A stretch of 64,000 bases of DNA. It comes from a bacterium. Its GTDB lineage: Bacteria; Patescibacteriota; Dojkabacteria; SC72. The DNA is taken from NCBI GenBank assembly GCA_021463465.1, contig JAJTYH010000002.1, positions 265,799-329,798 on the forward strand. Direction: 5' to 3'. Positions within the stretch are counted from its first letter, which is position 1, and every line of letters starts with the position of its first letter. Positions 51,001-54,000 of this stretch are shown here, in pieces. Position numbers: made by a program.

Positions 51001-54000
51001 CATGTACAAAATCAGAAAAATTCCTGACTTTTTGCGCGTAAAAAGAAGTAACTATAGTCGGTAATAGCAAATCTTCGAGGGAGACTCCTAAAAATCTATA
51101 ATCAGGGAACTGCATCCCTTGCCGTTTCGCCCAACTAACCAGACCTTTTAGCAGAGCATCTCTCATAAATAAAGATTAATCATCATTACATGTGCCTGTT
51201 GCACAGCATGTGTAAGATTCACTTGGTCTCAAACCAAACTTCTTTAACTCCTCTACATTGGCATCAAATTCACCAACTCCGAGAACATCAACACCCATTA
51301 TCGCTATTTGATTCAACTCCATTTGTGGTTTAGATTAAATTAAATACTTCTGCTCAATAACTTCTGCCTTTAAATCTTTAAGAGCAGCGAATAAGCTTTT
51401 TTCCTTAGATATCACCTCAGCAGAAATTTTCCCAGCCCCTAAGTTCCGCAGATAATCAACTGCAAACTCAAGTAATTTTAAAGCATTTCCTTTGTTATCG
51501 TGGGAATCAAGTAAGCATAATGCCAAAATCTCAGCATTTCTACTTGTTAACATTGTATTAACAAACCCTAAGAAACTTTTTGATTCGTCTAAAAGTACAA
51601 AATACTTAAATTCACTCTTATCATCACTAATACGAGCGCTTACATGCTTGAGAATTCCATCAAAATTGGTTTTATATTTATCATAACCAAATAGTTGATT
51701 TGAAGACATAAATTTACTAACCAGAAGGTTACAGATTTCCTCAGAATGACTTACATTTGCAGTGACTACTTCCATTATAACTCCAGAAAAAATTATAACG
51801 AGAACCTACTTGAATAATGTCTCAAAACTATCTCGAAGTCAACTCGATAAGACTATTAAGATTTAAATATTTAATCTCTTCTCCAGTCCTTTTCTTAACT
51901 TCATAGCCTCCTTTTTCCAAACTCTTCTGACTTACCACAATTCTATAAGGTAGCCCTATTAAATCGGCATCGTTGAATTTCTCCCCAGCACTTGCCCCTC
52001 CCCTATCGTCCCACATCACTTCGACTCCAGCTTTTGTAAGAGTCTCATAAATCTTGAGTCCTTCTTCCTGGGCGTTTTCTCCCAACGCAATCAGGTGAAC
52101 CTTATATGGAGCAACACTTTCTGGCCAAATCATTCCCTTGTCATCATGGAATTTTTCAGCTATCACTCCAAGCAATCTACTAGTTCCAATTCCATAGCTC
52201 CCCATATAAACAGGCTTACTTTTCCCATCTGCATCAACAAATTGATAGTCGACAGCATCGGTAAACTTAGTCATAAGTGGAAAAATGTTACCCACCTCAC
52301 TTGCCTTGAACGCTTCATACTCCTCAGATGTTTCAGGATATAAATCTCCTGATTTAGCCACTTTCAGGTCATGAAACTTTTTTGGTTTTTGAAGATCTCT
52401 CCCCCAGTTCACATTGGCCAAGTGATAATCGGTTCGATTCCCACCTGTTTCAAAATTTATCAACGGTTCGATCGAATCATCAATAAAAACCTCTACATCA
52501 TTTGGTAAATTCACAATTCCAGCATAACCTACCTTTGCCCCTGTAACCTTCTCTACCGTTTCGTCACTAGCTAACTTTAACTCCTTCACCCCAGCTACCT
52601 TCTTTAATTTCAATTCGTTGACATCATAATCGCCACGAACGGATGCTACCAAAATACCTTTTTCTGATTCGAAAATAAGAGTCTTTGTTGTTTGCGAAGG
52701 TTTAATTCCCATAAACTTTGAAAGTTCATCAACACCAATAATGCCCTTTCCCAGAACTTCCTCCATTGGCTTCATCTCACTATCCTGCTCCAAAGCAACA
52801 GCTTTAGATGGTGCAATTTCCTTATTAAAGCATTGGTTATTACTCTTAACACGAAAGATTAGATCCTCTCCCGTTTCCAGTCGAGTCTGGAACTCATGCG
52901 AATACTCTTCAGTGAAGTCACCCCCTGAAGCAGCTGTGTAGTAGGTTTGATCTCCCAGTCCTAAGCGATTATAAACTTGAATGTAAGCCTCTCTGGCGAC
53001 TTCGTAAAAGGCTTTCAAGTCTTCCACACTCTTATGGAATGAGTACAGATCTTTCATTCTAAATTCCCTGGTTCGTAGCAAGCCTGTTTTAGGTCTCTCT
53101 TCATTTCTGAACTTAGTTTGAATTTGATAGACAGCAAAAGGTAAATCTTTATAACTAAAGTTAAACTTCTTAGCAGTGGGGGTAATTACATCTTCATGAG
53201 TAGGATTAAGTACATACTCAGCATCATTCTTCTTCAAAGACCCTTCGTTAGCCCCAACTACCTTGAAAAGCACATCAACACTATCAAAACGGTTAGTACG
53301 CTTCCAATATTCAGTAGGCACAATAGAAGGCATTAGAAGCTCTACACCAATCTTGTCCATCTCTTCACGAACAATCTGTTCAATCTTGTGTAAAACCCTC
53401 ACCCCAAGAGGTAGAAATGTATATGCACCAGCCATCACCTGATCAATAAAGCCTCCCCTAATTAGGTATTCAACCCCTTTTGTGTCAAATTCTTTGTCTG
53501 CCTTAAGTGTCTTGCCGAACAATTTGGTGTATCGCATTGTAGTAGTATAAAAAAATAAACGCCCTTACAACAATTTAAGTTAATCCTTAAACTATTGCAA
53601 AGGCGTGTAAATCCGCGGTACCACTTTGCTTTCATCTAAATGTTTCCACTTAGATCTCGTATGCTAACTGAGTATTAGCAACTCCCTGTTTACATTAGAG
53701 GGAACTAAGAAGGTTAAGGATAATGATCCAATCCCTTCTCACTCCAGGAGTGGGACTCCTTTCAATGTGATGTAAGATATTCTAACAGTTATAGATGAAA
53801 AAGTTAAGATACAAATCCCCTGTCTTTGTCTATCAAATATCTCATATATTCAGAAACGGTCATATCATTTGAAGCAGATTCCACATTAAGATGACCTAAT
53901 TGCGACTTAGTAAGGAACATATTGAAGCGCTGATTTAATGCAGCCTTACTGTGTTTCGCCACAAATGTTTGAACTATATGGTCCAAATTATTTTCGTCAT

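Follow-up and report, generated by a model that had tools for sequence, protein, structure and literature searches.

The gene for prolyl-tRNA synthetase (ProRS), proS, lies on the minus strand of a 64,000-nucleotide (nt) stretch of Dojkabacteria DNA (contig JAJTYH010000002.1), here called the window, and is preceded by a leader that very probably acts as a miniature T-box riboswitch, controlling proS by transcription attenuation from a minimal scaffold. The leader carries a UGGN bulge between helices A1 and A2 of an antiterminator, a competing terminator, a kink-turn (K-turn), a CCC triplet followed by a purine, a match between the bulge and the discriminator base of a proline tRNA, and a synthetase gene 3' of these elements. 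Other features by which T-boxes are recognised are missing, namely the distal platform, the specifier S-turn, the S-turn and pseudoknot of Stem II, the G·U sensor pair and a score at the Rfam threshold. The sequence elements, their conservation and covariation among relatives and the mutually exclusive helices are seen directly, and all of the elements that a preliminary description of the window had listed are present on the minus strand at the positions it gave.

Architecture of the proS leader and its relatives

The window was searched with the Rfam T-box model (RF00230, gathering score 93 bits). At the gathering threshold no T-box was matched in the window and tRNAs alone were reported, while with E-value reporting the model aligned over its full length (positions 1-219) to 53596-53774 with 35.9 bits (E = 2.1e-6 locally and 2.4e-4 over the whole window). 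The T-box that the preliminary description had proposed 5' of proS is therefore found by the covariance model as a full-length alignment, at a sub-threshold score. In this alignment 76 positions of Stem I and most of Stem II are deleted, and what is retained is the K-turn, Stem III and the antiterminator. The leader folds with z = -7.5 relative to shuffled sequences, and the motif GTGGTACCGCG has one exact occurrence in the window. All leader elements were read on the minus strand, in coordinates of the whole stretch, as follows.

53779..53807, minus strand: sigma-70-type promoter TTAACT-17-TAGAAT with an extended -10 TG (promoter scan)
53739..53770, minus strand: ultrashort Stem I, 32 nt (sequence, Rfam alignment and covariation)
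53752..53754, minus strand: specifier codon CCC (proline), with U53755 on its 5' side and A53751 on its 3' side (conservation in 12 leaders)
53709..53738, minus strand: P2 domain in the Stem II position, 30 nt (RNAalifold and covariation)
53662..53703, minus strand: insert hairpins Ha (UCCCU-CUAAUGUAAAC-AGGGA) and Hb (UGCUAA-UACUCAG-UUAGCA) (fold)
53634..53655, minus strand: Stem III, AUCUAAG...UUUAGAU, then GAAA (Rfam alignment and fold)
53597..53629, minus strand: antiterminator GCAAAG-[UGGUACC]-GCG-GAUUUACA-CGC-CUUUGC (sequence and Rfam alignment)
53549..53606, minus strand: intrinsic terminator, a 21-bp hairpin with the U-run UUUAUUUUUUU (terminator scan)
51828..53537, minus strand: proS, encoding a bacterial-type ProRS of 569 amino acids with an editing domain (Pfam)
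55505-55578, minus strand: tRNA-Pro(CGG), given as context and probably not the effector (ARAGORN; Rfam, 61.7 bits)

The -10 element of the promoter scan (TGnTAGAAT) occupies 53784-53779 and transcription is predicted to start near 53773-53771, just 5' of Stem I. Stem I reads UCAC-AUU-GA-A-AGGA-GUCCCAC-UCCU-G-GA-GUGA (53770-53739), which is the layout of a standard K-turn: the C-stem UCAC/GUGA is followed by the K-turn bulge AUU (53766-53764) and tandem GA (53763-62 and 53744-43), and the NC stem AGGA/UCCU (53760-57 and 53749-46) carries the apical loop GUCCCAC (53756-53750). P2 is made up of the helix GAAGG/CCUUC, an internal loop GAUU/UUAA, a second helix GGAU/AUCC (P2b) and a loop CAUU. The flanks of Stem III, ACGAG and GAAA, are a partial match to the arrangement RRRxG-Stem III-AA. 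In the antiterminator, A1 (GCAAAG/CUUUGC) and A2 (GCG/CGC, with loop GAUUUACA) are separated by the 7-nt bulge UGGUACC at 53623-53617, and its 3' half shares sequence with the 5' strand of the terminator, whose two strands are 53606-53586 and 53579-53559. The U-run ends at 53549, 11 nt before the proS ATG at 53537, and the interval 53538-53548 (AUACUACUACA-AUG) holds no Shine-Dalgarno-like sequence in the window; the presence of a Shine-Dalgarno sequence varies among relatives, and L001 has AGGA. The encoded ProRS contains the Pfam domains tRNA-synt_2b, tRNA_edit and HGTP_anticodon and is 75% identical to a ProRS of candidate division WS6 (Dojkabacteria, Candidate Phyla Radiation). A 57-amino-acid open reading frame (ORF) at 53462-53635 was considered as a leader peptide and rejected, as it overlaps the antiterminator and lacks a proline run.

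Relatives were gathered from genome, metagenome and assembly look-ups by ProRS scans. The clade set comprises nine distinct Dojkabacteria leaders (the window, L001, L002, L016, L060, L062, L063, L064 and L065), after removal of duplicates (L035 equals L016, L036 equals L002, L044 equals L001 and L061 equals L060). L059 contributes a 3' half only, so that alignments of the 3' domain hold 10 leaders. Short Stem I leaders were also found in other Patescibacteria, in L011 (Levyibacteriota), L053 and L029, which brings their number to 12, and two further Dojkabacteria leaders with a longer Stem I, L003 and L067, bring the proline specifiers to 14. No T-box was found upstream of most other scanned Patescibacteria proS loci (L004-L010, L013, L014, L066, L068 and others). 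A TATAAT-like -10 element stands 10-17 nt 5' of Stem I in 9/9 clade leaders. Across the leaders the K-turn has a 3-nt bulge NNU and invariant tandem G·A/A·G pairs; a K-turn is thus present at the base of Stem I, with the kinked geometry predicted. Between P2 and the antiterminator the leaders carry from zero to three hairpins. Ha and Hb are kept in some relatives, missing or different in others and absent from L064, and by sequence they lie outside the conserved core.

Specifier, P2 domain and probable effector tRNA

The preliminary description placed a proline codon in a CCC triloop capping the 5' hairpin and named a downstream CCU as the rival specifier. In all 12 short Stem I leaders the apical loop contains CCC or CCU followed by a purine, while the rest of the loop varies, usually with a U on the 5' side of the codon. 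The clade loops are GUCCCAC, UUUCCCG, CUUCCUA, AACCUAA, AUCCUAA, CCCA and CCUA, and those of the other Patescibacteria are UUUCCCG (L053), CAUCCUA (L011) and UUCCUAG (L029). The helix beneath the loop changes from leader to leader as follows.

AGGA/UCCU: window and L002
CAGG/CCUG: L064
UAGG/CCUA: L065
UGGA/UCCA: L060
UGGU/ACCA: L062
CCAU/AUGG: L001, L016 and L063
AGGG/CCCU: L053
CCGG/CCGG: L011
GGAG/CUCC: L029

MAFFT with RNAalifold alone missed this hairpin because the register of the loop differs between subclades; the hairpins were therefore extracted by script, the helix was imposed and the pairs were counted. In the nine clade leaders pairing is 100% in the C-stem and NC stem, where 5/8 pairs show compensatory change; with P2 and P2b included it is 99.2% over 15 pairs, 10 of which have compensatory changes. 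The covariation score of the 5' domain was 0.633, compared with 0.235 for shuffles (0/500 reached the observed value) and at most 0.25 for slid partners. The comparison of related leaders called for by the preliminary description thus finds the apical proline triplet conserved and the Stem I and P2 helices covarying. The apical codon favoured there holds as CCY plus purine, but the triloop does not, since the comparison suggests that the functional loop is one of about 7 nt (GUCCCAC).

The two leaders with a longer Stem I connect this loop to the canonical specifier position. Within a CAGG/CCUG helix L067 has the internal loop AAUAGUA-(stub)-GAA-CCC-G, laid out as in a canonical specifier loop; in both L067 and L003 the CCC-G belongs to an internal specifier loop with AGUA...GAA and keeps the same position relative to the CAGG/CCUG helix. 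Because L064 shares the CAGG/CCUG helix, its apical CCC-G is the positional homologue of the canonical specifier. The upper part of Stem I is a stub or longer in these leaders (L067:512-700 and L003:2247-2500).

The rival specifier, CCU within UUAACCUUC, would leave the 5' hairpin as a mere K-turn module. A proline triplet does stand there in the window, but CCUUC in UUAACCUUC forms the 3' side of P2, pairing with GAAGG in a 5-bp helix that covaries as GUGGG/CUCAC (L062), GAGAG/CUCUC (L065) and AAGGG/CCCUU (L060), and neither L062 nor L065 retains any CCN triplet at this place. As the strand of a covarying helix from which the proline triplet is lost in two relatives, the CCU was rejected as specifier, and we regard this alternative as exceedingly improbable.

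P2 itself was predicted by RNAalifold and is 97.8% paired, with compensatory changes in 4/5 pairs. Among the clade leaders the bases G-G-A, G, C-A-U, C and U-A-A-C never change, in contrast to the covarying helices, and the inner helix, P2b, ranges from 2 to 4 bp beneath a loop containing the invariant CAU, which is likewise found in L067 and L003. The corresponding helix of L067 is assigned to Stem II in the Rfam alignment, with AAA/CUAA in place of the consensus GAA/AGUA, and for this reason P2 may be read as a Stem II in reduced form that lacks both the S-turn and the IIA/B pseudoknot. No conserved pairing between the loop and downstream sequence, as in a IIA/B pseudoknot, was found in the leaders, and CCUUAA is only loosely F-box-like. 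In the window, CAUUA (53721-53725) is complementary to UAAUG (53692-53696) in the Ha loop, both on the minus strand; L065 has the identical Ha loop, CUAAUGUAAAC, and Ha is missing in the other relatives.

The UAA/GAN internal loop has the consensus ccUAAg/uGAagg, with Watson-Crick pairs directly flanking it, and forms a cross-strand adenine stack that serves minor-groove contacts (PMC2615604). The GA/UAA pattern of P2 resembles this motif, though the fit of the sequence is imperfect: G-A-N and U-A-A are invariant and abut P2, and an inner U·U, C·U or A·A mismatch precedes P2b. It is conceivable, although doubtful, that P2 in this way stands in for the purine string of the S-turn. A model of the 5' domain, R1, had no match in the trpS and argS leaders of the window, and the P2 domain is therefore specific to proS leaders. 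The element 3' of Stem I is a distinct compact domain and more than a spacer.

The tRNA to which the loop and bulge would respond was considered from both ends of the molecule. The neighbouring tRNA-Pro(CGG) has A73 and no encoded CCA, and the bulge UGGU is complementary to this A73, as the preliminary description had noted; A73 is assumed to be common to other proline isoacceptors. The same description had pointed out that the CGG isoacceptor is not the Watson-Crick partner of CCC, and indeed the two are mismatched at the wobble position. The third specifier position is C or U in 14/14 proline specifiers and neither CCA nor CCG ever occurs in register. As the specifiers are always CCY, pairing with G34 is predicted, and the most likely effector, on the evidence of these sequences, would be uncharged tRNA-Pro(GGG). 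CCU and CCC make up 62% of the proline codons in the ORFs of the window, a usage with which a GGG isoacceptor would bear most of proline decoding.

A different isoacceptor, either tRNA-Pro(UGG) reading all four codons or tRNA-Pro(CGG) in a shifted or mismatched register, is an unlikely effector, although three things are in its favour. Reduced genomes often have a single proline tRNA, with the anticodon UGG, and depend on it. In the window, L001 and L066 alike, tRNA-Pro(CGG) and proS are linked, and CCG can be read in the +1 register of UUUCCCG (L064 and L053) and of CCC-G (L067 and L003). In that register, however, every CCU-A loop reads CUA (leucine) and the window loop reads CCA, which leaves CCY as the only reading that is proline throughout, and where a CGG tRNA has been kept, reduction to one proline tRNA is unlikely. 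The linked genes lie 2 kb 5' of proS in the window and in L001 (259-334), and 350 nt 5' of proS in L066 (282-355), a locus without a T-box.

The terminator switch and its proposed mechanism

Over its 21 bp the terminator is 99.5% paired in the 10 leaders, with seven compensatory pairs and a covariation score reached by 0/500 shuffles, and the antiterminator, which is nearly invariant, is 100% paired with one compensatory pair. At a position shared by the two structures L060 has a C-to-U change that is compensated twice, by G to A in A2 and by G to A in the 3' strand of the terminator, and this comparison speaks directly for the importance of both folds. Folded as the terminator, the segment that runs from A1 through the U-run has -30.9 kcal/mol, and the antiterminator with Stem III has -12.8 kcal/mol, this second value being for a longer segment that starts 5' of Stem III. 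In these models the much greater stability of the terminator fits an antiterminator that is kinetically favoured and stabilised by a ligand. The antiterminator had been called textbook; its layout (A1, 7-nt bulge, A2) agrees with that description, but the A2 pair next to the bulge does not, being G-C (G53616-C53603) rather than G·U or A-U. The same G-C is found in 10/10 clade leaders and, by eye, in L011.

From these sequences we infer tRNA binding, the identity of the isoacceptor, a role for P2 and discrimination of charge, in the following way. Transcription would start about 3 nt 5' of Stem I, which would form as a K-turn and a 4-bp helix, and the loop of about 7 nt would present CCC as U-CCC-A, akin to an anticodon loop, for pairing with the anticodon of uncharged tRNA-Pro. 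The K-turn would lead the chain into P2, whose invariant GA/UAA purines probably support the pairing of codon and anticodon. A73-C-C-A, at the free 3' end of the tRNA, would then pair with UGGU of the bulge and stabilise the weak antiterminator, blocking the 21-bp terminator so that RNA polymerase enters proS; prolyl-tRNA, unable to make this 3'-end contact, would allow the terminator to form. Taken to its full extent, the proposal is that Patescibacteria hold a natural minimal co-transcriptional T-box without elbow contact, S-turn or pseudoknot, and in some cases without Stem III, in which the anticodon kisses a U-CCY-R loop, the GA/UAA hairpin supplies an adenine stack and charge is sensed with a G-C pair. 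This extended form is plausible but falls a little short of probable.

Several observations weigh against reading the leader as a T-box, or against details of its operation. The score of 35.9 bits is far below the gathering value, and the related proS leaders score 24-55 bits with the same model, four of them being unreported even at E <= 1. Transcriptional T-boxes generally need a long Stem I with an elbow-binding platform (PMC7583486), and despite its terminator the proS leader has no elbow platform, no specifier S-turn and no IIA/B pseudoknot. The consensus A2 pair next to the bulge is G·U or A-U, and its conserved U is the primary steric sensor of the 3'-aminoacyl group (PMC7583486); in the proS leaders this U is replaced by C, whereas the trpS and argS leaders of the window keep it. 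A G-C and a U-A pair can form within the window loop and leave a CCC triloop, more stable by 3.9 kcal/mol than the 7-nt loop, and tRNA binding would need these two pairs to open. Finally, no genes for tRNA-Pro(GGG) or tRNA-Pro(UGG) were found in the window and 53 loci, which contain tRNA-Pro(CGG) alone.

Some of these points would also be expected of a decayed T-box that is blind to tRNA identity and persists as a constitutive attenuator or as a generic sensor of uncharged tRNAs with A73, acting through the bulge: the platform, S-turn and pseudoknot are lost, G·U is replaced, the Rfam score is low and L064 has no Stem III. The proline codon of the loop is nonetheless strictly kept in at least four Patescibacteria lineages in which its flanks and stem vary, and the many compensatory changes in Stem I and P2, along with invariant bases in the P2 loop, are unexpected in a relic. 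We consider such decay very unlikely.

The 5' hairpin might alternatively be a protein operator, bound by an L7Ae-type K-turn protein or by ProRS in autoregulation, or the control might be translational. K-turns bind L7Ae-family proteins, and YbxF has been mentioned in connection with T-boxes (PMC7583486); the leaders of L067 and L053 are, moreover, able to sequester a Shine-Dalgarno-like sequence. Set against this, a complete T-box 3' domain is present, and the window leader has a 21-bp terminator and U-run but offers no Shine-Dalgarno sequence for sequestration. The loop displays the codon CCY and not the anticodon NGG that ProRS recognises, on which ground the hairpin was also rejected as an anticodon mimic for ProRS. 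Together these points make either version highly improbable.

Relation to other T-boxes

Leaders among the relatives depart from the window in both directions. The smallest, L064:529-700, is known from a single Logan assembly contig and consists of Stem I, P2, an A-rich linker of 15 nt and the antiterminator/terminator; it has no Stem III and no other hairpin between P2 and the antiterminator, and the part that runs from Stem I through the antiterminator is about 115 nt long. In L067 there is no U-run, and the 3' strand of A1, CCUUAC, could pair with GUAAGG just 5' of the AUG, sequence features that suggest translational control in a sister lineage. The T-box of L053 (600-1500, apical loop UUUCCCG) precedes an operon of a 117-amino-acid ORF, a 122-amino-acid ORF and proS; the first of these ORFs resembles, by eye, a tRNA-binding domain (CsaA/Trbp111-like). 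Its terminator hairpin also covers AAGGAGG and its U-run adjoins the AUG, and from this arrangement control may be both transcriptional and translational. In the proS-operon T-box of L029 (1610-1900) an extra hairpin, UCCC-A6-GGGA, on the 3' side of Stem I occupies the position expected for the K-turn GA, where a three-way junction may, to judge by the sequence, replace the K-turn.

Two further T-boxes in the window score below the threshold, 5' of trpS (63.3 bits) and of argS (29.6 bits). The trpS leader (44352-44531, minus strand) is, as the preliminary description had proposed, of the same reduced type as that of proS: it has a K-turn with the AUU bulge (GC-AUU-GA...GA-GC), a short helix whose apical loop AGAAUGGG contains the tryptophan codon UGG followed by G, the bulge UGGUACC and a terminator-like hairpin. 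Unlike the proS leader it keeps the Stem II elements GAA/AGUA, the F-box-like GCGUAA and the U at the A2 base pair. The TrpRS ORF (42777-44282, minus strand, 501 amino acids) joins an N-terminal tRNA_edit domain (Pfam, residues 29-149) to a class I catalytic domain, and an editing domain on TrpRS is an unusual architecture. There are two tRNA-Trp(CCA) genes, at 28065-28139 on the plus strand and at 42606-42679 on the minus strand; the latter lies about 100 nt 3' of trpS on the same strand and may be co-transcribed with it under the trpS T-box.

The argS T-box (57906-58111, minus strand) is very divergent. Its bulge, UGGCACC, implies a G73 discriminator, and four clustered tRNA-Arg genes (58324-59135) lie beside it. 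Into the 5' part aligned by Rfam a short ORF appears to extend, and folding of this 5' part of the argS leader gave no significant structure (z = -0.84).

The proS leader shares with the canonical RF00230 T-box, exemplified by Bacillus subtilis tyrS, a basal K-turn, a codon followed by a purine, Stem III, the UGGN bulge, a terminator and a downstream synthetase gene. It differs in that Stem I is without the specifier S-turn, AG bulge and distal loop (the 76 positions deleted in the alignment), that the Stem II S-turn (GAA/AGUA) and F-box pseudoknot are unrecognisable, and that G-C replaces G·U in A2. A second point of comparison is offered by the glycine glyQS T-boxes, which are without Stem II, a lack ascribed to the strong all-G/C helix GGC:GCC (PMC7583486). 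The middle domain is reduced in the proS leader as well, and by analogy the same argument could extend to proline, as CCC:GGG should be equally strong. The glyQS type, however, has a long Stem I with an elbow platform and keeps Stem III, which has been termed indispensable (PMC7583486), whereas the proS leader has no platform and L064 is without Stem III.

The closest likeness is to the ileS T-boxes with ultrashort Stem I of Actinobacteria (Mycobacterium and Nocardia farcinica; Sherwood et al. 2015, via PMC7583486). There too Stem I is a K-turn with a short helix, the specifier is apical, a purine stands 3' of the codon, about 16-19 nt separate the codon from the 5' end of Stem I, and the double T-loop platform for the tRNA elbow is absent. 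The ileS type acts in translation by sequestering the Shine-Dalgarno sequence, for isoleucine and in Actinobacteria, while the proS leader has a terminator and belongs to proline and to Patescibacteria; and the ileS type depends on a Stem II domain of about 70 nt with S-turn and IIA/B pseudoknot, in place of which proS has one 30-nt hairpin and no pseudoknot. An ultrashort Stem I with an apical codon has so far been described only in these translational actinobacterial switches.

The T-box mechanism has so far been known from Firmicutes and Actinobacteria. No literature was found that links T-boxes with the Candidate Phyla Radiation, Patescibacteria or named phyla of that radiation, within a search of incomplete coverage that leaves a prior description possible. 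As the proS leaders all lie far under the Rfam threshold, T-box regulation in candidate-phyla bacteria has probably been overlooked by routine annotation. RNAs of about 115-180 nt make the minimal needs of co-transcriptional tRNA sensing testable, and their small size could be useful for engineered tRNA-responsive switches. If the proposed minimal T-box is true, it would define the smallest tRNA-sensing switch and contradicts the present generalisation that transcriptional T-boxes require a long Stem I.

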